Position numbers and translations under genes: made by a program. From an uncultured Planctomycetia bacterium (lineage in GTDB: Bacteria; Omnitrophota; Gorgyraeia; Duberdicusellales; Duberdicusellaceae), in the NCBI GenBank assembly GCA_964634935.1, contig CAZWJT010000001.1:95480-159479 (forward strand): a stretch of DNA of 64,000 nt, read 5' to 3'. This document shows, piece after piece, positions 21,444 through 54,516 of the stretch. The notes under the pieces are model-generated. The model had not been told where the DNA came from. It made no database searches and worked only from the letters and a program-made list of their open reading frames with translations. Each line of letters starts with the position of its first letter. The first letter of the stretch is position 1.

Positions 21444-21534
21444 TGGCGGAGGGGAAAGGATTCGAACCCTCGGTCCCGGCAAGCGGGACAACGGTTTTCA
21501 AGACCGCCGCTTTAAACCACTCAGCCACCCCTCC
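21444..21534 (-). tRNA. tRNA-Ser (anticodon UGA), 91 nt including an encoded CCA
   Basis: The reverse complement folds as a cloverleaf with a 7-bp acceptor GGAGGGG/CCCCTCC, anticodon loop CU-UGA-AA, a long variable arm (GTTGTCCCGCTTGCCGGGACC) typical of class II tRNA-Ser, T-loop GGTTCGAATCC, and a 3' CCA. Confidence 0.9.
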
Positions 21535-23328: not shown

Positions 23329-23710
23329 TGGTGGAGGTGCGGGGAATTGAACCCCGGTCCTTAAGTAAAATACTTAAAGTCCCTACGCGTGTAGCTTTCC
23401 TTTTAGCTTACTTAAGCCACCCCGGAAAGCAGGGTTGAACTTAAGGCAGCCTTTAAAATTTTTCCCTACCTTCAAAGGCTAACCAGGTAAAGATGAGCCT
23501 GTGCTTTAACCCCCTATGCCTTCCAGGCAAAAGACACAAGGAGCCCTACTAGTTTACTAAACAGGTAGGAGTTAACCCCATAGGAGCTACAAAAGGAGTA
23601 GCCCCAGTAAACATTGGAGTTGCGTTTAGATTTTCGCAGCTGTTTTGCCAGTGGCTGCGGCTGGACGCGCAACCTTAAGCTTTTTGCTTAAGTCGAATCC
23701 GATCACCCCC
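23329..23710 (-). ncRNA. ssrA: tmRNA (ssrA), about 382 nt
   Basis: The reverse complement starts GGGGGTGATCGGATTCGAC… and ends …GGACCGGGGTTCAATTCCCCGCACCTCCACCA (tRNA-like domain with T-arm and CCA). A candidate resume codon GCA sits 5 nt after an upstream UAA, as in the conserved UAGUC-GCA arrangement, and the open frame ends in tandem TAG TAG. Confidence 0.85.
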
Positions 23711-24236: not shown

Positions 24237-25364
24237 CTAACGCTTTCTTAAATCAAGCGGCAGAATCACAGTAAACGTTGACCCTTTTGAAACTTTACTT
24301 TCAACAAAAATCTCACCGCAATGCAATTTTACAATATTGTAGCTGATCCATAAACCGAGCCCGGAGCCTTCTCCCTGGGAAGGAATGCTCTGAAACTGGT
24401 TAAAAAGCTTGGTTATAAACTCTTCGCTAATACCACAGCCTGTATCCCGAACAATGATCTTGAGAAAAGCATTGTAGGAAGTATAGGAGACTTCTACCTC
24501 TCCGCCTGCAGGGGTAAACTTAAAGGCATTACCGAGAAGATTGAGCAAAACCTGGATAATCTTTTCCTGGTCACACCAAATTTCGATTATTTCAGAGGAA
24601 GCGTTGGTCCGAAAATGGATATTTTTCCGCTCAGCCAGAGGACAGGATTCCTCGAGTACCCGCGCGAATAGCTCGGAAAAATTTACCTTTTCTCGCTTCA
24701 AAGTCATCATGCCTGATTCAATCTTTGCAATATCCAAAAGACTATTGATGAGCGCGGTTAACCGAGTAATGACGCCAAGCATAGAAGTAAGCACTTCTTT
24801 CTGCTGGGGTAAAACAGCCCCCTCAAGTTCATCGCGTAAGTTTTCTGTGTAACCTTTGATTACAGTCAGAGGGGTGCGAAATTCATGGGCGACCGTGTTT
24901 ACAAACTCAGTCTTTGCCTGACTAATCCGACTCAATTCTTTGTTTTCGCCGACTATTTTCTGCCAGAGAATGCGGTTATCTTTGATCAACTGCGCTCGCT
25001 CTACGGCGCCTTTCAATGCGAGTGTAAGAAGCTCCAAATGACCCATATCCGGTTCTTTGATCAAATAATCAAAAGCCCCTTGCTTAATGGCCTCAACAGC
25101 AATCTTTTCGCTCCCTTGACCAGTGAGGATAATTGCCGGGAGTTCCTCCGGGCGGATCTTCTGATAAATTTGACCCATCACATCAAGCCCAACCGCATCA
25201 GTAAGGAAATAATCAAGAAGCATAGCGTCATAGGTCTCTGCCCATGCTTTCTCCAGGGCTTCTTGGCCTGAAGAAGCGACAATAACTTGAATATTTTCTG
25301 ACTCCAGCCTTTGCTTTACAAGGTACTGCTGGCCTGGATCATCTTCAACCAACAAAACTTTCAT
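24237..25364 (-). CDS. hybrid response-regulator / histidine kinase (REC-HisKA-HATPase_c)
   Basis: N-terminal REC (LLVEDDPGQQ…MLLDYFL…ILTGQ), H-box VAHEFRTPLTVIKGY, N-box NLLGNAFKFT, G-boxes DTGCGI / GSGLGL. Confidence 0.8.
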   Translation of the reverse strand: MKVLLVEDDPGQQYLVKQRLESENIQVIVASSGQEALEKAWAETYDAMLLDYFLTDAVGLDVMGQIYQKIRPEELPAIILTGQGSEKIAVEAIKQGAFDYLIKEPDMGHLELLTLALKGAVERAQLIKDNRILWQKIVGENKELSRISQAKTEFVNTVAHEFRTPLTVIKGYTENLRDELEGAVLPQQKEVLTSMLGVITRLTALINSLLDIAKIESGMMTLKREKVNFSELFARVLEESCPLAERKNIHFRTNASSEIIEIWCDQEKIIQVLLNLLGNAFKFTPAGGEVEVSYTSYNAFLKIIVRDTGCGISEEFITKLFNQFQSIPSQGEGSGLGLWISYNIVKLHCGEIFVESKVSKGSTFTVILPLDLRKR

Positions 25365-25378
25365 AAATTGCTCCTTGT

Positions 25379-27547
25379 TTATAAATTCAATTTCTTAGGT
25401 ATGGTAAAGTAAAATTTTGTCCCGCTGTCCGGCTCTGATTCAACCCAAATATTCCCACCCTGGGAAGTAACGATCTTTTTTACGATTGTAAGCCCCATGC
25501 CCATCCCTGCTGCAACCTGAGGTTCGAGGCGTTGAAACACTTGAAAGATACGATGAAAATTTTTGGGGTGAATTCCCTTGCCGTTATCTTTTACAAAAAA
25601 CTTGTATTCAGAAAAAAGCTCTTCGCAGCCAACTTCGATTATTCCCCCTGTTGGTTTATCCATATACTTTATGGCATTATCAATAAGATTGGTAAAAATT
25701 TCATTCACCCTTACTTCATCGCCGACGATACTGGGTAACGGATGAATAACCAATTGCAACTTTTTTTCTTGAAGTGCATGCGACAAGAACTTACTGATAC
25801 TTGTGAGGTTTTGGTTTAAATCTATCTTATTTTCAGCACGAGGCTCCGTGGTCACCCGCGAAAGCTTCAGGAGACTCTGCACCAAAAGGCTTATTTTCTT
25901 AATACCTTCATCAATAAAAGAAAAATATTCCGATGGTGTCTTCCCAGCAGTCTCCCCTATAGTACCCAAAGTTTCTTTTATTTTATCGCTAAAACCCTTA
26001 ATATTCATAATCGGAGCCTTCAGATCGTGCGAGACGATATAGGTAAAATTTTCCATCTCTTGGTTTACGTCTTCCAGTTTTTTGTTCAAAATCTCCATCT
26101 CGCGAGCGCGCTTCTCAAAGCGGAGGTCTCGAGCTATTAAAACCATTTCTTGCCGTTCGTTCTCGGTGCTCGTTATTTTTTTACCGTTTACGTTCACCGG
26201 GATATATTCTTTTTGCTTTGAAAGAAAAAATAAATCCTTGTCGACAAAGCAATCCTGCCGAAAAAGACCTTCGAGTTCTTTTTTATCTTCATCAAGAGAT
26301 AAAGAATTTCGGATATTGAGAAAGGAGAAAACCGACTGCCCCACCACTTCTATATTCTCATAGCCTAAAAGACGGAGAAAAGCTCCGTTCACAATCCGAA
26401 CAGTAAAGTCTTTGTCAAAAACCAGCAAGGCTTCAAGCATGTTTTCGATAATACCTTTGAGTGATTCGTTTGACTGACGGAGGTTTTTTTCCGAATAGGA
26501 CAGCTCCATTGCCATTCGATTAAAGTTCTGGGCAAGCTCTCCGATCTCATCCCGAGTTCCGATCTCAACCGCTTCAGGAACTTCTCCTTTTGCGAGCGCC
26601 TTGGTTTCTTCAGAAAGAATTCGTAAGGGTATGGAGATACGACGGGAAAAAATAATACCAATGGAAGCCGCGGCAATCGAAAGAAAAATGAGCACAACAA
26701 CGATAAGGGTTAAAGCATTCTTTTCCGCCTGGATAATACTATCAATGGGAATGCTGATAACGCACGCCCCCTGAGCACGCCCATCCTCATCTTTCAAGGG
26801 CACAACTTTTGATTCAAGTAAAAAACCTCCTTCGAGATCAACTCGAACATTCTTAATCTCATCCTCAACCTTCTGACCCTGGTATACATACGATGCTTCA
26901 CCAAGATACGGCACGCGATTACCCTGACTATCAGCGATGCTCGTCGCAACCATCTTTTTGTGAAAAACAAAACTTATGTCTACGCCGGATATCGATTTGA
27001 TATAGTCGGCAATCACGTGGTCAATGACTTTTTCTAAAACCAATTTTTCAAAAAGCGGCGCCTGTTCTACAGAAAGACTGATTTCCTCGCGTAAATACAA
27101 AGAAGATCCCGCGGCAAAGATATCAATCTTTTGATTGTTTTTGTCCGCCGGCAACAACAGGGCAAGCTTTTGTTCATCTTTTTTTATCCCATAGAGGGTT
27201 TCCCTCTGGGGTCCGTAAAAACTTCCGTCTTTGGCAATAAAATAAATTTTTGTGAGCGCTAATTCAGTTTTCTTCAGCGCAAGAATTTGTTCCAGAAAAT
27301 CTGTTTTCGCTGTCCGCAAATATAAAACAATGTCCGGATCTTTCAGTAGTGACTCACCTTGCGTACGAATCGTCTGGCGGTAGTCAACAAGCGTATTCAA
27401 GGCAACCCTCGAGGCAAAAACAGCCTTATCATCAAGAATGCCAAACATCGTTCTACTCACAGTCTTAAGGGTGATCAACCCAACAAAAAATGGTGGAATA
27501 AGCGCAATGCCAGCTAAAAGAATCGGCAGCTTATGGCGTATTCTCAT
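25379..27547 (-). CDS. transmembrane sensor histidine kinase (periplasmic sensor-HAMP-PAS-HisKA-HATPase_c)
   Basis: Two TM helices flank a roughly 260-aa extracytoplasmic domain. A HAMP-like linker, a PAS-like segment (IIENMLEALLVFDKDFTV…), H-box SHDLKAPIMNIKGF, N-box NLIDNAIKY and G-boxes DNGKGI / GMGLTIVK follow. Confidence 0.8.
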   Translation of the reverse strand: MRIRHKLPILLAGIALIPPFFVGLITLKTVSRTMFGILDDKAVFASRVALNTLVDYRQTIRTQGESLLKDPDIVLYLRTAKTDFLEQILALKKTELALTKIYFIAKDGSFYGPQRETLYGIKKDEQKLALLLPADKNNQKIDIFAAGSSLYLREEISLSVEQAPLFEKLVLEKVIDHVIADYIKSISGVDISFVFHKKMVATSIADSQGNRVPYLGEASYVYQGQKVEDEIKNVRVDLEGGFLLESKVVPLKDEDGRAQGACVISIPIDSIIQAEKNALTLIVVVLIFLSIAAASIGIIFSRRISIPLRILSEETKALAKGEVPEAVEIGTRDEIGELAQNFNRMAMELSYSEKNLRQSNESLKGIIENMLEALLVFDKDFTVRIVNGAFLRLLGYENIEVVGQSVFSFLNIRNSLSLDEDKKELEGLFRQDCFVDKDLFFLSKQKEYIPVNVNGKKITSTENERQEMVLIARDLRFEKRAREMEILNKKLEDVNQEMENFTYIVSHDLKAPIMNIKGFSDKIKETLGTIGETAGKTPSEYFSFIDEGIKKISLLVQSLLKLSRVTTEPRAENKIDLNQNLTSISKFLSHALQEKKLQLVIHPLPSIVGDEVRVNEIFTNLIDNAIKYMDKPTGGIIEVGCEELFSEYKFFVKDNGKGIHPKNFHRIFQVFQRLEPQVAAGMGMGLTIVKKIVTSQGGNIWVESEPDSGTKFYFTIPKKLNL

Positions 27548-28742
27548 CAGTAATCTTCCGAGCTAATGAATCCACGTCTTGAAAAATTTTCATGGCGTTC
27601 TTCTTTTCCTGTTCAAAAGCACCCTGGATTTCCTTACCGATATATTCCCATGACTGCTGATAACCTTCTTTTTGGACATAAGCCGCAAGGATCTTCTGAA
27701 TTACCGAAAGAAAATATCCGGCACTCTGCCAATCTGTCCATCGTAAAGAACGCTTGATAAAATAAAGATTCTGGGCCAAAAAGAATGATTCGCCTGCTTT
27801 TTCACCAGAAAGCCTGACCCCCTCTTGAATTACGTACTCCTGGAGCGGATTAAAAAAATCTCGCCGGTTTTTCACGAATGCGTCCTGAGAACCCGAAGCT
27901 AAAACAAAAACTTTTTTTAAAAAATCTCTTTCTTCCCCGCCAATCTCACCAGACTCAGCCCCGTTTTGAGCAAAATCGGTAATTCGCTTCAGAATACGCA
28001 ACGTATATTCTCGGTCTTTTCTCTGGACGCTTGCGCCGAGCGCGTTAAGCTTCTCAAGCAAAAACTCCACTGAAAGAAACCGTCCCCTCTGGTCTTGTTT
28101 CTCCGAGGCGTATTCCTGAAGGAAAAAAACCAATTGATCAATCTTGCGGTTAAAACGCTCCATATCGGCAGTATCAATGAGCGATTCAAAACTTACCGCT
28201 TGGAGAGTATCTTTTATCTGATCAACCATCTTTTTCTCGGAAACACCTAACTGCGCAGAAGAAAACAACGCAAGAATATCAAGCAGCTTATTGACTCGAA
28301 AAGTACAAAGAACATAATCCTTCTCAAGCACCAGTGAATCAATCACAGCCAACTGACGAAGCACATAGAGAACGATCTTTTCTTGGGAATGCTTTTTCCC
28401 AAAAGCTATATGGAGTAGAGCTGACTGAAAATCCTGAGTATTAGAAAAAAGAAGCGGCTTATCTGCGGCAAGGGCAAGGTTATTCTCAAGATTTGCGAAA
28501 TGATAATTTAATCGGCGAAGTTCTTCTCCGCTAAAATCCGCATTTCTTTCCTTGAAACGGGAAAATTCTTCTTCAAAAATTTCAAGCAAAGGAGGAATAG
28601 TACGAAAAGAGCCATGTGCAACATCAGCTTCAACATCCGCAAGAATAAAAGAAAGAGTGCAATTACCGGAACTGATATCATCAGCAAACAACAAAGCTGG
28701 GAATAAAAACACCAGAAACAAGCACAATGCTTTCTTCCTCAT
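27531..28742 (-). CDS. hypothetical secreted/periplasmic all-helical protein, first gene of the sensor-kinase operon
   Basis: Signal peptide MRKKALCLFLVFLFPALLFADD. About 400 aa rich in Leu/Glu/Lys with no recognisable family. Start placed at the Met preceding the signal peptide, which abuts the smpB stop. Confidence 0.4.
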   Translation of the reverse strand: MRKKALCLFLVFLFPALLFADDISSGNCTLSFILADVEADVAHGSFRTIPPLLEIFEEEFSRFKERNADFSGEELRRLNYHFANLENNLALAADKPLLFSNTQDFQSALLHIAFGKKHSQEKIVLYVLRQLAVIDSLVLEKDYVLCTFRVNKLLDILALFSSAQLGVSEKKMVDQIKDTLQAVSFESLIDTADMERFNRKIDQLVFFLQEYASEKQDQRGRFLSVEFLLEKLNALGASVQRKDREYTLRILKRITDFAQNGAESGEIGGEERDFLKKVFVLASGSQDAFVKNRRDFFNPLQEYVIQEGVRLSGEKAGESFFLAQNLYFIKRSLRWTDWQSAGYFLSVIQKILAAYVQKEGYQQSWEYIGKEIQGAFEQEKKNAMKIFQDVDSLARKITDENTP

Positions 28743-28746
28743 TCTT

Positions 28747-29199
28747 CTACCGGTTGAACCTCCGTAACGTTCTTTGCACATAGCGTTTTTCATCCCGTTC
28801 TTTAATGGCCTTGCGTTTATCATATATCCGCCGGCCTTTTCCAAGGCCAATTTCGAGCTTCGCCAGGCCCTTTTCAGTAAAGTATACCTTAAGCGGAACG
28901 AGAGTAAATCCTTTTTGTGAAACAAGGCCCCATAAGCGATGGATTTCTTTCTTATGAAGAAGCAATTTTCGCTCCCGATATGGATCTTCCTTGAAATAAG
29001 AAGTTTTGTCGAACTCGGAAATATGCATATTGGAAACCCTGATCTCGCCATTCCGTAAATACGCATAACTGTCTTGGATATTGACTCTCCCTAAGCGCAA
29101 CGATTTCACCTCGCTTCCTTTCAATTCAATCCCGGCTTCGAAAGTTTCAAGAATTTCGTAGTTTAAGTACGCCTTCTTATTTGTGCTTATAATCTTCAT
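28747..29199 (-). CDS. smpB: SsrA-binding protein SmpB
   Basis: NKKAYLNYEILETFEAGIELKGSEVKSLR… and a C-terminal basic tail typical of SmpB. Start set at MKIIS…. Confidence 0.85.
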   Translation of the reverse strand: MKIISTNKKAYLNYEILETFEAGIELKGSEVKSLRLGRVNIQDSYAYLRNGEIRVSNMHISEFDKTSYFKEDPYRERKLLLHKKEIHRLWGLVSQKGFTLVPLKVYFTEKGLAKLEIGLGKGRRIYDKRKAIKERDEKRYVQRTLRRFNR

Positions 29200-36647: not shown

Positions 36648-38612
36648 TCATTCCAACGACTGCCTCAGCTGTCGCTCAGCGTCTACTTCATCTCGATTCA
36701 TTCGGAGAAAACATTCCCGGGCTTTCCCGTGGATTGCCGAAGAAAACCCGGGAAAAGACATAAATTCTCTGGCTAATTGCAAAACCATGCGAAAATAGCG
36801 TATTAATTCTCCTTCATCGATATCGGTAATCTTCTCCAGTTGGGCAAACGCAATCCCTTCAAACCAAAGCCTCACAGGCTCCGCTAGGTGGTATGCAAAT
36901 TGCTTACTTGCGGGATAAATCCGGAAATTTTTCTCCCGCCGAAAAATCAATTCATCGATCGCCTGGGTTGCCTCAAAGACCCTACGCACACTGTGGGAAA
37001 GACGCGGTTTTTCCTGACCTCGTCTTGGTTCATACACAAGCGCAGAAAATAAAATAGCAAGTTGCAGCGAAGAAATCGCTTCAAAGAATCCCCGTTCATA
37101 GAGTTCCCCCAGCGGAAGTTCATAGCTATAGAGATGCGAAGCAAGCTCTCCCTTAAAGCTTAATCTCTTTGTCTCAGTAATATACCCCAATTCTTTCAGA
37201 AGCGTGATTTTCCTCCGGGTAAGTTCAACCGCTTTTTGTTTTTCTTTCTCGGAAGCAGAGAAAAAATGGAATGAAAGAGGATATATATCGTAAATCTTCT
37301 CACCCATATCTCGATAGAGATTAAGCAAAGTGGCATAATTACTTTTTAGTTGGCTTTCTATTTCTTCGGGGCGTCCATAAATAATCCGCTTTAAACCTTC
37401 CAGGGAAGCGCCGAGAGAGCTAACACGCAGATACACAAATCCATTATTATCGATGCCTCTCCGGCCAGCGCGGCCGGCAATCTGGTAAAAATCCCTAGTT
37501 TTCAAATAACGGTGGAACGTACCAGAAAATTTTTTGATATCATCAAAAACGACTGCCCGGGCTGGCATATTTATCCCTAAAGCAAATGTCTCTGTGGTGA
37601 AGATCGCTTTCAGCTTGCGAGAAGAAAAGAGCACTTCAATCACTTCTTTCAATGAAGGGAGAAGCCCGGCATGATGAAATGCAACTCCTCGTTGGATGAA
37701 CGGCTTTAAAAAACAAGCTCCGGCATGCGCTGAAAGGTCAAACCTGGAAAGAAGTTGACTATATAATTCTGATATCTCGACGCTCTCTTCAGCGGTAAGA
37801 AAGTTAAAATGCCCTGCCACCTCTTCAGCTAGCATCTCAGTTTTTTTCCGAGAAAAAGAAAAATAAATGCAGGGAAGATGATTTTTCTTTTGAAGCATCT
37901 CGAAAAGCGCATAAATTTTATTCGGCCGCGTGCCTTGAAGACGATTTGAATGCCTCCTCTGAAATAATTTCTTTTCTGAACTAACCAAAATATTCTCCCG
38001 CTCCAGCGCTTTGACATGGTTAAAAATGCGGTTGTTGCATTGGAAAAAAATACTGAGCGGCACCGGACGGGTGTATTCAATGATAGTTTTTATGGGAAAA
38101 TGGTGTATTGAACTCATCCAGGAGGAAATCTCCCGAACGTTGGGTACGGTTGCGCTCAACGCGATAATTTTCATATGTTTAGGCAGCAGCATCAAAGCTT
38201 CCTCCCACACGGTTCCACGCTCAACATCATCAAGATAATGTATTTCATCGAAAATAATCCACTCTTTGTTGCGAAGACGCTCGGGATCAGACAGGATGAC
38301 ATTACGAAAGATCTCCGTTGTCATAATGACCAGGAGCGCATCCGGATTTAAACTGACATCTCCGGTCAGAATACCAACCCGATCGCCATACGTTAAAGAA
38401 AAATCCCTGAATTTTTGGTTACTCAATGCTTTGATCGGAGCAGTATAAACAATGCCTTTTTGATTCTGAAGAGACCGGGTAATTACATATTCAGCAATAA
38501 GAGTTTTTCCCGCTCCAGTAGGAGCGGAAACAACGACAGACGAACCAGATTCTATACTGGCAATCGCCTCTTGCTGAAATCGGTCAAGCGGGAACGGATA
38601 GTGCAATTCCAT
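36648..38612 (-). CDS. Ski2-like DExH-box superfamily-2 RNA/DNA helicase
   Basis: Motif I SAPTGAGKT, motif II DEIHYL (DExH), helicase C-domain motifs (HHAGLLP, QIAGRAGRRG), and a roughly 250-aa C-terminal helical domain. Confidence 0.7.
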   Translation of the reverse strand: MELHYPFPLDRFQQEAIASIESGSSVVVSAPTGAGKTLIAEYVITRSLQNQKGIVYTAPIKALSNQKFRDFSLTYGDRVGILTGDVSLNPDALLVIMTTEIFRNVILSDPERLRNKEWIIFDEIHYLDDVERGTVWEEALMLLPKHMKIIALSATVPNVREISSWMSSIHHFPIKTIIEYTRPVPLSIFFQCNNRIFNHVKALERENILVSSEKKLFQRRHSNRLQGTRPNKIYALFEMLQKKNHLPCIYFSFSRKKTEMLAEEVAGHFNFLTAEESVEISELYSQLLSRFDLSAHAGACFLKPFIQRGVAFHHAGLLPSLKEVIEVLFSSRKLKAIFTTETFALGINMPARAVVFDDIKKFSGTFHRYLKTRDFYQIAGRAGRRGIDNNGFVYLRVSSLGASLEGLKRIIYGRPEEIESQLKSNYATLLNLYRDMGEKIYDIYPLSFHFFSASEKEKQKAVELTRRKITLLKELGYITETKRLSFKGELASHLYSYELPLGELYERGFFEAISSLQLAILFSALVYEPRRGQEKPRLSHSVRRVFEATQAIDELIFRREKNFRIYPASKQFAYHLAEPVRLWFEGIAFAQLEKITDIDEGELIRYFRMVLQLAREFMSFPGFSSAIHGKARECFLRMNRDEVDAERQLRQSLE

Positions 38613-38693
38613 ATCATCCTACCTTTTCACTACTTGTATTATCCATTACTGGAATGTTTTTTCAATATAAAACAAAACTAATACATGAGCCCT

Positions 38694-38722
38694 TGTAAAA
38701 AAAATTAGAAAGATGTTATACT
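38694..38722 (+). promoter_or_regulatory. candidate sigma70-type promoter for the minor-pilin operon (TTGTAA-17 nt-TATACT)
   Basis: -35 TTGTAA at 38694-38699, 17-nt AT-rich spacer, -10 TATACT at 38717-38722. The pilin ATG lies about 23 nt downstream. Confidence 0.4.
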
Positions 38723-38744
38723 ATAGATGTGATATAATTGATTT

Positions 38745-39158
38745 ATGAAGCTGCAAGTCCGGCGAAGAAGAAAAGCGGTAAGCCTCGTTGAAATCCTCCT
38801 TACTGTTGCACTCTTGGCAATCACCCTATGCACAATCCTGGGTAGTTTTACTGCCTGTTTCTTAATTAATGAAACAAACCGCAATATCACCAAAGCAGTA
38901 AGCCATGGGGAATTTGTAATTGAAGAAATTAAGAACGCATCATTTGCAACCCTGCAAACTGCAATTAATTCGGGTAATTTTGATTGGAATACGACCTTTA
39001 TCGCGCAGAAAGGCCTTGAAGCGCTCTCAGAAGAAGGAATTAATACACAAGTACAATCTCTTGGGGCATCTCTGCTCCATGTTACTGTTACCGTTTCTTG
39101 GACGGATCGTAGTGCGAGCAGAACATACACACTTGAAACGCTCATCGCGGATTTATGA
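38745..39158 (+). CDS. type IV pilin-like / pseudopilin (prepilin-type N-terminal helix, Glu5)
   Basis: Charged leader MKLQVRRRRKA followed by VSLVEILLTVALLAITL: a class-III signal-like hydrophobic helix with Glu at +5 of the predicted mature protein. 137 aa. Confidence 0.6.
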   Translation: MKLQVRRRRKAVSLVEILLTVALLAITLCTILGSFTACFLINETNRNITKAVSHGEFVIEEIKNASFATLQTAINSGNFDWNTTFIAQKGLEALSEEGINTQVQSLGASLLHVTVTVSWTDRSASRTYTLETLIADL

Positions 39159-39162
39159 AAAC

Positions 39163-39705
39163 ATGGGAAAAACACTTGCGCTAACTACAAGGGGCAGATT
39201 TCAAAAAAAGGCGTTCACGCTTGCTGAAGCCTTAGTAAGCAGCGTAGTTATGGCTATCCTCCTCAGTGGACTATTTGCTGTTTTCCTCGCAGGAGAAAAA
39301 GGATGGCATTCTGATATAAGCCGAGTAGATCTACAGCAAACGACTCGCCTGGCGCTTTTCGGCATGAGCAGGGAATTACGCCAAACATCCGCCGATACAC
39401 TCTCACTTCCGCAGATTTCAACGATTACCTTCTCGTTACCGAACGTCGGAAATTCGATTACCTATAGTTTTGATGCGGCAAAAAAACAAATTATCAGACA
39501 GCACCCGGCCGGGGTTACCCAGGTAATTGGCCGGGATATCCAGGCACTCAGTTTTTCCTGTCTTGATATTAACAACGCTGTTTTAGCAAGCAACCTCTGC
39601 GGGAATGCCGAAAGTATTCTAATCCAAATAACCGCCCAGAAAGAGGCATTCCAGCGTAGCGTGAGCTTTGCGCTTCAGAAAAAAGTAAAATTACGGAATG
39701 AATAA
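39163..39705 (+). CDS. type IV minor pilin / pseudopilin (GspJ/PilW-like)
   Basis: …RGRFQKKA-FTLAEALVSSVVMAILLSGLFAV: prepilin-type N-terminus with Glu5. About 180 aa. Starts 4 nt after the previous stop. Confidence 0.55.
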   Translation: MGKTLALTTRGRFQKKAFTLAEALVSSVVMAILLSGLFAVFLAGEKGWHSDISRVDLQQTTRLALFGMSRELRQTSADTLSLPQISTITFSLPNVGNSITYSFDAAKKQIIRQHPAGVTQVIGRDIQALSFSCLDINNAVLASNLCGNAESILIQITAQKEAFQRSVSFALQKKVKLRNE

Positions 39706-39764
39706 AGCACACAGAAAACACAATAACTATCGGCAAGAAAGCGTATATAAAAAGTGAGGATTGT

Positions 39765-40781
39765 ATGAGAAAACATGCTTTCACACTGGTCTTTGGGCTT
39801 TTAATCATCGTGGTATTCGCGATACTCCTTACCGGCTTAGTGGCAAAAAGCGTTTCAGAACGGATGATGACGCGGGCTTACGCGGACTCAACCCAGGCTT
39901 TCTGGCTGGCTGAAGCTGGCATAAACCGGGCTTTTGTCGAATTACAAAACAACTATAATCTCTCGGGAGCAAATCTCTTCCCAACCACACTCGGACAAGG
40001 AAGCTACGCCGTCTCTATTGCCACAAACGGACAAAATAAAGTAGTAACCGCTTACGGCTATATTCCCTCTGCGGTAAATCCCCGTATCACCCGCACCTTG
40101 GAAGCAACTTTCCGGAAATCAATTCCTCCTAATTTTTTCGATAACGTTATCTATGGAGCAGGAAACATTGACATTTCTGGAAATAGCTACAGTGTAAACG
40201 GAAACGTTATCTACGCCGACAATTTTACGAATGATGACAACGTCACCGGCAATATCGTTCATGACCCATCAATTAAACCGCTCGCGCGGTTTAATTTCAC
40301 ACAACTTCGCCAAATAAGCGTTAATCAAGGAAACCTCTACACTCAGCAAAGGCTGAACAACAAAGACCCCTTTCCCGTAAGCTTCTGGAATGTACCCCCG
40401 AGCGGAGGCAATCCAGGAATCCCTAATGTTGTCTATATCGAAGGCGACATGGTAGTAAAAGGCAATACAAATGTTGGCGGGTTTTTTGTAGTTGCGGGAA
40501 ATGTTATTACTCAAGCTGACGCAACGGCCGATGCCACATTAAGCGGAAACGTGAATGTTGCTGGAGCAGTCTATACTCGAGGAACTTTCAGGGTGAACGG
40601 CGGAGGAAATAAATTGAATATTGACGGTGGCGTTTGGGCAAGCGCCGTTGATATGAACGGCGGCGTCACCCTGACGTACAATGCCCAATATATGTCAGCT
40701 ATTGCCGGGCTTAATACAAACCCGGAAGTGCAAGTGCTCTTATGGAAAGACCTGGATAAACCGTATAAAATTACCCCGTAA
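39765..40781 (+). CDS. PilX-like type IV pilus minor pilin (PilX_N domain) with Gly/Asn-rich repetitive C-terminal domain
   Basis: MRKHAFTLVFGLLIIVVFAILLTGLVAKSVSERMMTRAYADSTQAFWLAEAGINRAF matches the PilX N-terminal pattern (hydrophobic helix …S..ERM..N…..AF.AAEAG). The C-terminal roughly 200 aa is full of GN/NV repeats. Confidence 0.55.
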   Translation: MRKHAFTLVFGLLIIVVFAILLTGLVAKSVSERMMTRAYADSTQAFWLAEAGINRAFVELQNNYNLSGANLFPTTLGQGSYAVSIATNGQNKVVTAYGYIPSAVNPRITRTLEATFRKSIPPNFFDNVIYGAGNIDISGNSYSVNGNVIYADNFTNDDNVTGNIVHDPSIKPLARFNFTQLRQISVNQGNLYTQQRLNNKDPFPVSFWNVPPSGGNPGIPNVVYIEGDMVVKGNTNVGGFFVVAGNVITQADATADATLSGNVNVAGAVYTRGTFRVNGGGNKLNIDGGVWASAVDMNGGVTLTYNAQYMSAIAGLNTNPEVQVLLWKDLDKPYKITP

Positions 40782-40784
40782 TTT

Positions 40785-40821
40785 AACCGCGGCAGGGTTT
40801 GCGCCCGTGGTTTGCTTTTTT
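40785..40821 (+). terminator. intrinsic terminator of the minor-pilin operon
   Basis: AACCGCGG-(12 nt loop)-CCGTGGTT forms an 8-bp stem (one G-U pair) followed by TGCTTTTTT, 4 nt after the PilX-like stop. Confidence 0.45.
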
Positions 40822-40875: not shown

Positions 40876-43800
40876 TTATTGTTTGCCAAAAAATACTTCG
40901 ATCTTAAAACATTCATCCTTACGAATGCGTACCGCGTCGGAATGCGCAATCACTCCGCCTGAAACAATCTTTTCTTCGCCGTTACGATAGAAAAGCTTTA
41001 CCGAAGTAATCTTGAGGGTGTTTGAAAAAGTATCTTTCCGTGACGGGTTGTAATACACAACGAGCGTATCTTTCAAGAATTTGAAACAGAAAGTATTCGC
41101 GGGAAGAAAAATATGCTGGTGCTTCTTCTGCCAGTAAACTGATCTTTGCTCTGGTTTTACGGTGAAAAAATCCCCGGGCAAGGCTGGAGCAAAAGAAAGA
41201 AAAAGCTTCCCGTCTCTGGTAAAAAACGGGCTCTTCCCGGCACAAAGGAGAATCCACATATGAACCAGCTCGGCCGTCGAACCCGAAAGACGGGCGACAA
41301 AACCCCGGCCCCAGAGTTTCTTATCTGGATAGGCACTGCTTACGATAAAGGAAGAATTCTCTAGAATATTCCGCCCGTATGTTCCGGGCTGCAAGAAACA
41401 AACAAAGCATTTTTTGATATTTTCATAAAATTCTCGGTACAAACCGGCTTTCAAAAGTTCCAAGAGATACTTGTATTCCATGTGCAACCAGATGGATTCA
41501 TTTTCAAGCCACCCTCGGTTAAATACGCGCATCCTGCCGATTTCCAGGCTCTCCCCAGCCAAAGAACCGTTTAATTTATACATCGATAGCTTCTTATCGA
41601 ACAACTGGCTTTTTTTGACTTCACGAACAATGAGCGGAATTTCATCCTGTTCTGCTACCCGAAGAAGATGAACCACACCTTCAAGAAAAACAGGGAGAGG
41701 ATGTTTTTTGAATTCAAGAGACTTTATTGTTCCATTCACATGTTCATAACGTACAACTTCATGCGTATAAAAAGCATGTACCAAAAGGCCATTCCGAGCC
41801 CAGTTGAGAGCTTGTTGTGTTTTCCGAATAACTTTTCCAACAAACAGAGATATCTCTTCTCTGGTAAGACATACAGTCTCTGAGAATCCAAAGAAAGCCG
41901 CATCTCGGTATAGTTCTTTAGCGGCATTACTCTCATCCCAATATGAAAATGCTCGCGACGCATCCTCTGTTGGATAGCGCTCCAGAAGAACATGGATACA
42001 ACGGATAAAATCAGCAAGCTCTTTCGGACAGGCAATCGCATCCTGTATTTCTGGCGACTCATCGAATGCCCGTTGTAAAAAACGAGCTAACCTCAACAAA
42101 GCCATCGTTTCATTTACTGAAGAACCAAAAAGAGCCGGTAAACCATTTAACGCATCACACCAGCCGGGTTTCCCTGCCTCCATCTCAATGCCGATACCAA
42201 AGGCATCAAGCGTCGCAATTTTATTCACCAAGAGCGTGAGCAACTTTACTACGAGACTCACCTGGACAATTTCCCCTCTTCCTGAACCGTCTCTTACCCG
42301 ATGCTTAAGTGAAGTTCTTTCCTGAAGTAACTTCATTTTTCCGGAATCAAGCACAAGAAAGTTATGTTGGCGAATCTTTCCGTGTATATCTCGATAATAC
42401 TTCGCGCTTCTGGGGTTAATGCGATAAGCGCCATCGTAGAAGTAAAATTTCTCCTTGAAAAGAAGTTGAGACAGCTTCTCCGGATAAATCATCAGATAAC
42501 TTTCGAGCAAATCAATATTGTAGAGCCAATGGTCGATCCAAAATCCTTCGGCAAAGTCGGCGTGCTCATAACGTTCAGCAACCGCAAGAACCTTCTCAAT
42601 GCAACGGTACATTTTTGCTTGAGAAAGTTCTTGTTCACTGAGAAAGCTTGAAAGATTCTCCACGGTAAATTCTGCCTGAAGGAATTCACGGGCTCTTTCC
42701 CGGGAAACGCCGCCGAAAAACTCCTGGATAACCGCCTCCAGTGCAGCCTTATCAGACAATACCAGCAATTCTTGTTTCACTACGAGCGGATTATACCCGA
42801 ATTGATCCTGAAGATTAAAAAACAAACGTATATTTAAATTCTGAATATCCGGGTTAAAGTAAACGTCCAGGCGCCGATTCTGATTAATATCGCGGAAGTT
42901 TCCTTCACCCTGAGAAAAATATACCGAAGGAAGCTTAAACTTATTATAGTCGCGCTCAAGATCACCATGTTTTCGAGAAAAAACATACCAGGTTTTCTGG
43001 GCCCCGACCGTTACCGGCATCCCACCTCTTAAAACATTATCAAGGTAAGTTGTTCGCACATACTCATCAAAGACGCGTACGGCTGAAACGGTAAAGGTAT
43101 TATCTTTAATCGAATCAAGGAGAGCATTCCCCGCCTGAAAGTTATTTTCAATAAACAAAGGAACCTTGACTTTTTTAGAAAATGGTTTCAGGAATTTGAG
43201 ATCTTCGGCTGAACCCACTACTGAATAAAAAGTAAATGCCGATGAAGCTGGAATATCTTTTGCAAAAAAACTCATTGCTGCAGGAGTCTTCCCGTATGTA
43301 ATCTGCTCTGAAGGATAACGAAATTTTTTCTCAAGAAACTTATACGGCAGTGTCAGCGATGAGTTATCTTGAAAAATACAATCAGGATCAACTATGAGCT
43401 TTGAGAATACAACCTTCTTTTCGGTAAAGAACGAAGTATAAAAATTTGCCCCTTGAATATAATGAGTTGCGGCGACATCTTCCGGAGAAATTTTCAGCTT
43501 AAATAACGAAAGTTCCTTTCTACAGTCAACTTCCATCCAGGCTTCGATAGTCCGGGAAAGATCCTTGAGCAGAATATTCTTGATACCGTACGGGATAAGA
43601 ACCGGAAGTCCATCGAGAAGCTGAACGGAAATTTTCTTCCTGGAATGGTTTATGAGTGAAACTTTCCGCACCAACCCAGCAACTGGCTGTTCAGACAATA
43701 CAGAATAACGGACGACGATTTCCAAGCCAAGCTTTTTATTCAACTCCTGTATTTGAAACCATGAAGAATGAATCGTCATCCGCTGGACGATAGAATCAGA

Positions 43801-44100
43801 GGTATGAGCGATAAATGGTTCATAAAAAAGATTCCCTATCTTCAGAAATGTCCTGAAGCCTTTATGAAATACCGCGTAATAGGATTTATTCGCCGGGAGA
43901 AACTCCACGACCGAATGATCTTTATCCTTAAAGCCAAAACTCGCGATTCCCTGGGCACGATTTACATAAAAAGCCCAGAGCGGAATCCCATTCATTCCAG
44001 CGATACCTGGGAGAAAATTCGAGAAAGCTGGAGCATGGTTATAATGTTCAATGGTACAAGAACCGTCTTTCCCGATCATATATGTTGCCTGTTTCATCAA
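40876..44100 (-). CDS. large (1074 aa) cytoplasmic hypothetical protein; weak resemblance to glycoside phosphorylase/hydrolase-type (alpha/alpha)6 enzymes
   Basis: No signal peptide. A long uninterrupted ORF in a GC-typical frame. The segment EAGKPGWCDALNGLPALFG is loosely reminiscent of the GDWNDGMN catalytic loop of GH94-type phosphorylases. The family call is inference only. Confidence 0.35.
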   Translation of the reverse strand: MMKQATYMIGKDGSCTIEHYNHAPAFSNFLPGIAGMNGIPLWAFYVNRAQGIASFGFKDKDHSVVEFLPANKSYYAVFHKGFRTFLKIGNLFYEPFIAHTSDSIVQRMTIHSSWFQIQELNKKLGLEIVVRYSVLSEQPVAGLVRKVSLINHSRKKISVQLLDGLPVLIPYGIKNILLKDLSRTIEAWMEVDCRKELSLFKLKISPEDVAATHYIQGANFYTSFFTEKKVVFSKLIVDPDCIFQDNSSLTLPYKFLEKKFRYPSEQITYGKTPAAMSFFAKDIPASSAFTFYSVVGSAEDLKFLKPFSKKVKVPLFIENNFQAGNALLDSIKDNTFTVSAVRVFDEYVRTTYLDNVLRGGMPVTVGAQKTWYVFSRKHGDLERDYNKFKLPSVYFSQGEGNFRDINQNRRLDVYFNPDIQNLNIRLFFNLQDQFGYNPLVVKQELLVLSDKAALEAVIQEFFGGVSRERAREFLQAEFTVENLSSFLSEQELSQAKMYRCIEKVLAVAERYEHADFAEGFWIDHWLYNIDLLESYLMIYPEKLSQLLFKEKFYFYDGAYRINPRSAKYYRDIHGKIRQHNFLVLDSGKMKLLQERTSLKHRVRDGSGRGEIVQVSLVVKLLTLLVNKIATLDAFGIGIEMEAGKPGWCDALNGLPALFGSSVNETMALLRLARFLQRAFDESPEIQDAIACPKELADFIRCIHVLLERYPTEDASRAFSYWDESNAAKELYRDAAFFGFSETVCLTREEISLFVGKVIRKTQQALNWARNGLLVHAFYTHEVVRYEHVNGTIKSLEFKKHPLPVFLEGVVHLLRVAEQDEIPLIVREVKKSQLFDKKLSMYKLNGSLAGESLEIGRMRVFNRGWLENESIWLHMEYKYLLELLKAGLYREFYENIKKCFVCFLQPGTYGRNILENSSFIVSSAYPDKKLWGRGFVARLSGSTAELVHMWILLCAGKSPFFTRDGKLFLSFAPALPGDFFTVKPEQRSVYWQKKHQHIFLPANTFCFKFLKDTLVVYYNPSRKDTFSNTLKITSVKLFYRNGEEKIVSGGVIAHSDAVRIRKDECFKIEVFFGKQ

Positions 44101-53454: not shown

Positions 53455-54516
53455 TTAGATAGTCTGAAGCCGCATCTGTAATTCTTCCTTCTTGTCGGTA
53501 AACTGTAACGCTGTTTCCGTGCTGATTACCGAACTCTTCACCAAACGAAGGAGTGTCTGCTCAAAACTCACCATACCATAGATATCACCTTCTTCAATAT
53601 ACCGAGGAATCTCCCAGATTTTTCCTTCGCGGATTAAGCGTGAAACGCTCGGGCTTAACACCATTACCTCATAGGCAGGAACCAAACCAGCCCCCTTTTT
53701 TTTCGGAACCAAACGCTGAGAAACAACGCCCTTTAAAAGCTGAGAAAGCTGCATTAAAACCTGCGAATGTTGATGCGGGAGAAAATAACTTAAGATGCGC
53801 TCCACTGATTGCGGAGCGTTCACCGTGTGCAACGTAGAAAGAACCAGCACTCCAGTCTCAGCGGCGGTTAACGCTGCTTTCATTGTCTCTTCATCTCGGA
53901 TCTGCCCGATAAAAATCACATCAGGAGAATGCAACGCAAATTGACGAAGCGCGTCAGCGTAACTACGCACATCTTTACCAACCTCACGCTGGTTAATGAT
54001 TGAGTTTTTGTCTTTAAAAGTAAATTCTATCGGCTCTTCAATAGAAAGGATATGCTTTTTGAAGTTTTTATTGATGTATTCGATCATCGAAGCAATGGTT
54101 GTCGATTTACCGCTGCCGGTAGTCCCCGTAAGCAGCACTAAACCTCTTTTCTGTTCACAAAGCGCCTGGAGGGCTGTTCCTGGCAACAGCAATTCATCAA
54201 AAGTTGAAATACGCAGATCGATTTTCCTGATGACAATCGAAGGAGTACCCCGTTGGTAAAAAACGCTGATCCTCAGCCGGATATCCCCGCCAAACCAGAT
54301 TGCCCCCTCATAACCACGTTGCTGCTCAAGCACGGGGCGATCTTGCTCTATAACAACCTCACGAAGAATTTCGTCCATCATTTCCGCAGAAATCACTTCC
54401 ATCATCAGCGGAACGACCTCTCCATATACCCGGGCTAACGGAACAGCATTGAGACGCAAGAATAAATCGGAAGCTTCCATCTTGATCATGCGTTCCACGT
54501 ACTTAGCAAGTGTCAT
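53455..54516 (-). CDS. pilT: type IV pilus retraction ATPase PilT
   Basis: Walker A GTTGSGKST, Asp box IEEPIEF, Walker B/His box (DVIFIGQIRDEET…LVLSTLHT). 353 aa. Confidence 0.85.
   Translation of the reverse strand: MTLAKYVERMIKMEASDLFLRLNAVPLARVYGEVVPLMMEVISAEMMDEILREVVIEQDRPVLEQQRGYEGAIWFGGDIRLRISVFYQRGTPSIVIRKIDLRISTFDELLLPGTALQALCEQKRGLVLLTGTTGSGKSTTIASMIEYINKNFKKHILSIEEPIEFTFKDKNSIINQREVGKDVRSYADALRQFALHSPDVIFIGQIRDEETMKAALTAAETGVLVLSTLHTVNAPQSVERILSYFLPHQHSQVLMQLSQLLKGVVSQRLVPKKKGAGLVPAYEVMVLSPSVSRLIREGKIWEIPRYIEEGDIYGMVSFEQTLLRLVKSSVISTETALQFTDKKEELQMRLQTI

Follow-up and report, generated by a model that had tools for sequence, protein, structure and literature searches.

The stretch of DNA analysed here (the window) is a 64-kb piece of contig CAZWJT010000001.1 (assembly GCA_964634935.1, positions 95,480 to 159,479) from an uncultured bacterium of the phylum Omnitrophota. 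Three consecutive plus-strand genes, I, J and K, were found in it (Table 1), while almost all other large open reading frames (ORFs) lie on the minus strand. The trio is I-J-K in the terms of type II secretion systems (T2SS) and PilV-W-X in those of the type IVa pilus (T4aP). The first-pass annotation had reported three plus-strand genes on an otherwise minus-strand stretch and had read them as a minor-pilin operon with two pseudopilin-like genes and one PilX-like gene. The first statement was confirmed and the second supported, the latter by a match of J to the Pfam family N_methyl, of K to PilX_N and of I to the NCBIfam model XpsI, and by the structure models of J and K. The stop codon of I is separated from the ATG of J by 4 nt, and J from K by 59 nt; in the public annotation J starts from a GTG at 39112, giving 197 aa (database copy P0069). 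The G + C content of the trio is 0.45-0.46, compared with about 0.42-0.43 for the window overall.

Table 1. Coordinates of the I-J-K trio, its parts and other features, counted from the first base of the window
Feature	Position	Strand	Remarks
Gene I	38745..39158	+	137 aa; GspI/PilV-like minor pilin; leader MKLQVRRRRKA, mature N-terminus VSLVE, Glu at +5
Gene J	39163..39705	+	180 aa from ATG 39163; GspJ/PilW-like minor pilin; mature N-terminus FTLAE after ...RFQKKA
Gene K	39765..40781	+	338 aa; PilX/GspK-like cap pilin; MRKHA/FTLVF, without Glu at +5
Shine-Dalgarno-like GAGGA	39756..39760	+	4 nt 5′ of the K ATG; read off the sequence
K pilin module	39768..40115	+	alpha-1 helix aa 2-62, four-stranded sheet aa 68-117
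K beta-solenoid	40137..40679	+	about aa 125-305, G/N/V-rich, flanking alpha-helix aa 178-188
K C-terminal beta-strand	40731..40751	+	aa 323-329, contains invariant W327
Sigma-70-like promoter candidate	38693..38722	+	TTGTAA-18 nt-TATACT, TG extension; 132-bp divergent intergenic region between helicase and gene I
Terminator-like hairpin	40785..40821	+	8-bp stem 40785-40792/40805-40812, 12-nt loop, then UGC and U6 (40816-40821); convergent intergenic region
Divergent neighbour, DEAD-box helicase	36648..38612	-	C-terminal DSHCT domain (Ski2/Mtr4/HelY type); divergent from gene I
Convergent neighbour, 1074-aa protein	40876..44100	-	no Pfam domain
PilT/PilU-family retraction ATPase	53458..54516	-	TIGR01420 388 bits, cutoff 319; Pfam T2SSE E = 2.1e-40
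HAMP-PAS histidine kinase	25382..27547		
Hybrid receiver-kinase	24240..25364		

The N-termini were read as RRRRKA/VSLVEILL for I, FQKKA/FTLAEALV for J and MRKHA/FTLVFGLLI...SERMMTRAYADSTQAFWLAEAG for K, the slash marking the predicted cleavage site. In both I and J a basic leader precedes a small residue at -1, and Glu at +5 is followed by about 20 hydrophobic residues; a six-frame scan of the whole window found canonical [GAS]-x-x-x-x-E prepilin motifs in these two genes only. Among homologues, G, A or S at -1 together with E at +5 was found in 57 of 71 motif-bearing I and 67 of 74 J sequences, and E at +5 in none of the motif-bearing K sequences (rough regular-expression counts, in which some sequences are mis-registered). 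In agreement with these counts, the K alignment has ‘xx’ here (consensus LIxxxxVI), with every residue below 50%; Phe, found there in the K of the window, is as expected for cap pilins. Glu5 normally forms a salt bridge to the N-terminus of the subunit above it. K has no Glu5, and therefore fits a subunit with nothing above. Leader and hydrophobic helix are present in K as well.

Family searches by hidden Markov model (HMM) placed J above the gathering score of N_methyl (PF07963; 22.4 versus 21.2 bits) and K above that of PilX_N (PF14341; 25.7 versus 25.5 bits), a family also matched by 32 of 45 members of the K family. XpsI, the equivalent of GspI, was matched by residues 12-125 of the 137 residues of I (E = 5.5e-7), near full-length but remote. 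Further NCBIfam matches were weak and far below their cutoffs: ComGF and Verru_Chthon protein C for J, and GspK, ComGG and Verru_Chthon protein A for K. A Verru_Chthon cassette was rejected on its scores (J 25.6 versus 256.5 for TIGR02599, protein C; K 13.1 versus 332.3 for TIGR02600, protein A); these alignments cover only about 60 N-terminal residues, and the lengths are 180 versus 361 aa for J and 338 versus 1296 aa for K. J gave nothing against Pfam T2SSJ (PF11612) at E values up to 1, and a distant J homologue, P0105, carries a precomputed PF11612 match. With profiles of I, J and K, searches of the PDB aligned only the N-terminal helix of full-length pilins, or gave no match of any meaning (endothiapepsin for K). 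Because most solved minor pilins are N-terminally truncated, sequence alone was unable to assign the three proteins.

The first-pass annotation had further provided the trio with its own promoter and terminator. Consensus-like sites were indeed found at its two ends, the promoter candidate matching 9 of 12 consensus positions, but neither is better than what shuffled sequence yields. Six promoter-like sites were found in the region with 6.0 expected from shuffles, with z = -0.25 and +0.38 the hairpin at 40785-40812 is no more stable in its fold than shuffles are, and it fell short of the criteria of the terminator scan. Both are thus statistically unsupported candidates, plausible from their position in a divergent and a convergent intergenic region. 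No clear Shine-Dalgarno sequence was seen upstream of I or of J when the sequence was read.

Predicted folds of J and K

A K model was obtained with AlphaFold from an alignment of 45 homologues, with a pLDDT (predicted local distance difference test) of 91.6. Structure comparison resolved it into a GspK-like pilin module joined to a beta-solenoid of the ice-binding-protein (IBP) type. The pilin module, in which the long N-terminal alpha-1 helix lies on an antiparallel beta-sheet, has its best structural matches in GspK/XcpX. For J, a search with the single sequence yielded only two proteins, and the alignment was assembled from database matches; the resulting model matches GspJ/XcpW and also EpsJ, and has the GspJ-type fold of a pilin helix and two beta-sheets. 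The beta-solenoid which the first-pass annotation had proposed for the C-terminal domain of K was thereby recovered, and its description of that region as GN/NV-rich also held: residues 125-310 contain 14.5% N, 12.9% G and 12.4% V (40% combined), and all ten GN dipeptides of K fall within residues 133-281.

In K, each of the 18 columns that are invariant in the 45-sequence family alignment is kept, and a conserved VQxxSWxD motif is located at the C-terminal strand. Going by the order of elements in the model, this strand probably rejoins the pilin sheet; the solenoid would then be inserted into the pilin module, as it is in ComZ of Thermus thermophilus. The solenoid had been called unusual, a description that did not survive, since it is present in every member of a phylum-wide K family and the same architecture has been published for ComZ and cyanobacterial PilX. 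Weak Pfam matches among the 45 family members were to Bactofilin (21 members) and pAdhesive_15 (one member). Labels in use for these proteins are hypothetical and, in one JGI record, ‘bactofilin’.

The IBP-type fold is widespread in proteins without ice binding. The likeness of K to DUF3494/IBP-1 (PF11999) is in fold only, with no Pfam match at E values up to 1; members of the K family come from metagenome-assembled genomes (MAGs) whose record titles name groundwater, marine, digester and hot environments, and the same fold is found in ComZ of a thermophile (PMC6561018). It is therefore extremely improbable that the K solenoid is a true ice-binding domain, serving antifreeze or ice adhesion on a pilus, as its fold could otherwise suggest.

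Related loci and genomic setting

Sixty-eight full-length K homologues with 34-50% identity were found; where a source is named, it is Omnitrophota without exception. The K profile, searched against 1.84 billion representative proteins, matched 135 clusters at E ≤ 1e-30 and 1,516 at E ≤ 1e-10. A genome scan gave 187 related stretches; 79 loci, nearly all of them in Omnitrophota MAGs, were retained. The source genome of the window is absent from them, and its best identity to them is 50%. The ORFs of the 79 loci were classified by iterated profile searches. The order I-J-K is conserved throughout, and I homologues were found in the same place directly before J in 73 cases. As the order recurs in more than 60 independent loci, it is more than chance.

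About 39 loci have the arrangement major pilin-(h)-I-J-K-PilM-PilN-PilO-PilP-PilQ (secretin), and in 7 of these, by hand recount, there is an overlap with PilM of a few bases. In about 26 loci no PilM lies within 1.5 kb of the trio, and 13 contigs end too early to judge. Thus pilMNOPQ follows the trio directly in about 60% of the judgeable loci, and in about 40% the trio is detached. Downstream of K in relatives are genes for PilM_2 (PF11104), PilO and Secretin; upstream, many relatives carry PilT, two tandem PilB-type ATPases and PilC, and a PilT-family ATPase is located beside the cluster in L033, L046 and L051. Separate PilM, N, O, P and Q, PilB and PilT, which define a type IVa system, are therefore present in relatives; in the window, PilT is the only one of them seen. 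In a published survey, T4aP genes were found in 135 of 141 Velamenicoccia, 38 of 40 Gorgyraia, 19 of 23 Omnitrophia, 11 of 13 Aquiviventia and 4 of 9 members of class 2-02-FULL-51-18 (PMC10066038).

These gene neighbourhoods bear on whether the trio could instead be the tip of a T2SS pseudopilus (GspI-GspJ-GspK), which pushes folded exoproteins through a GspD secretin. In its favour, the best structural and HMM matches are XpsI for I, XcpW/GspJ/EpsJ for J and GspK/XcpX for the pilin module of K, the g-h-I-J-K order of relatives is that of gspG-H-I-J-K, and the major pilin of L026 weakly matches T2SSG. Such top matches are, however, biased, because T2SS structures dominate the PDB for these subunits. 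Downstream of the trio in relatives there are separate PilM (PF11104), PilN, PilO, PilP and PilQ rather than GspL, GspM and GspC, and a PilT-family retraction ATPase is encoded both in the window and beside the cluster in the three loci named above. K, which passes PilX_N, reaches 13.1 bits with the GspK equivalog NF037980 (cutoff 130), and in its model the solenoid replaces the GspK alpha-domain; a bulky axial solenoid also suits a surface-exposed tip. With these clusters classed as T4aP in published surveys as well (PMC10066038), we regard a secretion pseudopilus as very unlikely.

The first-pass annotation had stressed the orphan placement of the operon. The trio is isolated in the window apart from PilT, but this is not remarkable, given the proportion of judgeable relatives that are detached. 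In Pseudomonas, Neisseria and Myxococcus, minor-pilin operons stand detached as a rule, often apart from pilMNOPQ and pilBCD; in P. aeruginosa the minor-pilin operon fimU-pilVWXY1E lies apart from the assembly machinery. K is also close to and convergent with the 1074-aa gene in L026, L031 and L080 (about 45% protein identity), the arrangement beside that gene being I-J-K in L026 and I-J-K′-K in L031, with L080 cut inside K. Flank genes are shared too, namely BioY and patatin in L026 and L080 and LpxL in L026 (about 32-63% protein identity). Judged from these gene neighbourhoods, the detached arrangement is old. The other flank of L026 still has, divergently from I-J-K, genes for a pilin, PilC, PilB and PilB′, one gene with MshEN only and one with GGDEF/GAF. 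Since the window has the helicase where L026 has pilus genes, the complete isolation seen here represents a further rearrangement.

A decaying or silent leftover displaced from its operon would likewise be detached from all assembly genes in the window, and could lack clear Shine-Dalgarno sequences at I and J and a significant promoter and terminator, as is the case here. The three ORFs are intact, though, K retains every invariant column, and about 40% of related loci are detached as well. The position beside the 1074-aa gene, kept in L026, L031 and L080, implies long-term retention under selection, and decay is a highly improbable explanation. Horizontal transfer of the trio, or a mobile island, was rejected: no integrase or tRNA is adjacent and the position is conserved in relatives. 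The tRNA-Ser and the transfer-messenger RNA (tmRNA) are 15-17 kb off, and a XerC/D-like integrase is 23 kb off.

The related loci contain further pilus genes of interest. In L026 (1099-8176, minus strand) there are, upstream of the pilin genes, two tandem PilB-type ATPases, each with an MshEN domain, which binds cyclic di-GMP (c-di-GMP), together with a stand-alone MshEN protein and a GAF-GGDEF cyclase; about 25 other loci also have two ATPase matches each. The tandem MshEN ATPases hint at c-di-GMP control of pilus extension and a duplicated extension motor. Many Omnitrophota loci have a second, longer K paralogue, K′ (370-580 aa), or a full second I-J-K′ trio. Second trios were found in L005, L007, L015, L054, L071, L072 and L073, and K-K′ ahead of PilM in L008, L040, L042, L043, L046, L052, L063, L064 and L079. 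In a rough neighbour-joining tree, K′ falls outside the clade of K proteins of about 340 aa to which the K of the window belongs. This K/K′ paralogy suggests alternative pilus tips, comparable to the two PilX subfamilies of cyanobacteria. The trio of the window has no PilY1-like gene with it, and none was recognised beside the trio in related loci by a query set that held no PilY1 model.

In the window itself, 50 of the approximately 60 ORFs were scanned with Pfam and NCBIfam. As the first-pass annotation had stated, PilT is encoded among housekeeping genes about 13 kb away (12.7 kb, outside the operon, above the TIGR01420 cutoff), and no other pilus or secretion gene was found. Profile queries with PilM, N, O, P, Q and pilins against all window ORFs of at least 70 aa gave nothing beyond the trio, and no peptidase_A24 gene was present among the 50 ORFs scanned. 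The housekeeping genes include a dcw cluster, dapA/dapB, SecA, a release factor, UvrC, MurJ, LptE, a BamD-like gene, a class II aminoacyl-tRNA synthetase, hisF and two histidine kinases. The 1074-aa neighbour has a weak match to GH149 beta-1,3-glucan phosphorylase (94 bits versus a cutoff of 1150), and a 50%-identical homologue of the helicase is located about 4.6 kb from the trio in L065.

Several other features of the window were recorded. A 511-aa ORF without Pfam or NCBIfam match (27534-29066, minus strand) is located directly upstream of the HAMP-PAS histidine kinase and the hybrid receiver-kinase. The tmRNA (23329-23710, minus strand; Rfam 162.8 bits) encodes the tag peptide AATGKTAAKI, and with tRNA-Ser(TGA) (21444-21534, minus strand) it lies in a stretch, from 20.8 to 23.8 kb, that otherwise contains few long ORFs. 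A protein of the adenosine-specific kinase family PF04008 (47521-48000, minus strand; E = 1.4e-74), a family that is mostly archaeal, is encoded between the genes for the Lnt and LpxL-like acyltransferases.

The proposed pilus tip and its known counterparts

From these data we conclude that I-J-K is most likely the core minor-pilin (priming and tip) complex of an Omnitrophota type IVa pilus. The N-terminal helix of the prepilins I and J would anchor them in the inner membrane, and a prepilin peptidase encoded elsewhere would probably cut them after Ala -1. They would pair, with the GspK/PilX-like K on top, and the trimer, probably together with an H/FimU-like adaptor pilin from elsewhere, would nucleate the major pilin on the PilB/PilC/PilMNOP platform. 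The complex would then exit via the PilQ secretin and stay at the distal tip, the K solenoid projecting along the fibre axis, where it would most likely act as plug and adhesin (for a surface, host cell or polymer) in place of a PilY1-type protein. The fibre would be retracted by PilT.

A number of observations weigh against this assignment. The HMM check proposed in the first-pass annotation was passed by J and K but not by I, which at 17.8 bits is just under the N_methyl gathering score of 21.2; similarly, I scores 29.7 bits against XpsI, for which the cutoff is 150, so that its GspI similarity is remote and the curated GspI/PilV threshold is not reached. At -1, I, J and K carry Ala and not Gly, whereas 30 of 33 major pilins of related loci have Gly. 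By a rough count, Ala is also found there in about 40% of the homologues of K and in roughly one in four of those of I and J; in the pilin of P. aeruginosa, Ala at -1 has been reported to be tolerated. Among solved structures, T2SS pseudopilins are the closest, so that the assignment to T4aP depends on the PilT of the window and, in relatives, on the gene context of PilM/N/O/P/Q, PilB and PilT. Apart from PilT, no assembly gene, major pilin, adaptor pilin or prepilin peptidase was found among the 50 window ORFs scanned. By homology with the solved GspI-J-K and XcpV-W-X complexes, the core minor pilins of T4aP and ComZ, the three proteins are inferred to form a heterotrimer at the tip, where it would serve as adhesin or plug; their processing is likewise predicted, and a single I-J-K transcript is presumed.

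A more specific proposal is that the K solenoid serves as a host- or prey-recognition head and PilY1 substitute, that K′ and I-J-K′ provide alternative tip specificities, and that the detached trio is a separately regulated, swappable cassette. We offer this as a tentative possibility, with the odds rather against it. Omnitrophota are uncultured, mostly ultra-small bacteria thought to be attached to or preying on other cells, and T4aP genes are among their most widespread putative symbiosis genes (PMC10066038); the trio, its solenoid cap, its phylum-wide occurrence and its frequent duplication with a divergent K′ point to a specific candidate protein surface for partner recognition. If true, swappable tips would give a molecular handle on partner attachment in ultra-small, host-dependent bacteria.

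What is new here is a phylum-wide family of solenoid-capped tip pilins in an ordinary detached I-J-K operon, and the novelty claimed in the first-pass annotation was overstated; nothing in the locus would surprise a pilus specialist. Solenoid-capped tip pilins, so far known from Thermus and cyanobacteria, are extended to a phylum of the Planctomycetes-Verrucomicrobia-Chlamydiae (PVC) group, and this extension supports the solenoid cap as a widespread alternative to PilY1. Proteins labelled hypothetical or ‘bactofilin’ can now be named.

Compared with the GspI-GspJ-GspK tip of the T2SS (3CI0 from enterotoxigenic Escherichia coli; XcpV-W-X, 5VTM, from P. aeruginosa), K lacks the alpha-domain and carries a solenoid after its fourth strand instead, the scores of the trio are far below the equivalog cutoffs, and the machinery of relatives is PilMNOPQ/PilB/PilT and not GspC/L/M. 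The core minor pilins of T4aP form a homologous priming and tip set of retractile pili, and K matches PilX_N, but the operon described here is without a FimU/H-like adaptor and without a PilY1 gene. K is about twice the size of proteobacterial PilX owing to the solenoid, which may take over the PilY1 role. Ice-binding proteins of the DUF3494/IBP-1 type (7BWX, 5UYT, 3WP9 and 4NU2) share the fold of the K solenoid and have no HMM-level sequence similarity to it; in K the domain is fused to a pilin module, and ice binding is not expected.

ComZ of T. thermophilus (6QVI) has the same pair of structural relatives and the same architecture as K: its pilin domain is closest to GspK and its solenoid to FfIBP, and it was argued on steric grounds to fit the tip only (PMC6561018). 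As ComZ is the DNA receptor of a competence pilus, the trio could by this likeness be the tip of a DNA-uptake pilus, with K acting as a receptor for DNA, like ComZ, and not as an adhesin for cells or surfaces. ComZ is, however, longer (PDB chains of about 500-520 residues, with a solenoid of about 380 residues versus about 180 in K), its solenoid is irregular, has long loops and is without the flanking alpha-helix common to K and IBPs, and no sequence similarity to K was detectable in the PDB profile search. The DNA-binding lysines of ComZ could not be mapped onto K, no comEA, comEC or dprA was found among the 50 window ORFs scanned, and Omnitrophota pili have been linked to host attachment (PMC10066038). 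A competence tip is accordingly unlikely. In the published description of cyanobacterial PilX-Com and PilX-EPS, to which we liken K, a PilX cap pilin carries a triangular IBP-like solenoid before its C-terminal strand, proposed as a PilY1-like plug (bioRxiv 10.64898/2026.02.12.705559). These proteins belong to another phylum, and the EPS subfamily has much larger solenoids and extra domains; their genomes are without PilY1 and can carry several paralogous minor-pilin sets, comparable to the K and K′ clades of Omnitrophota.

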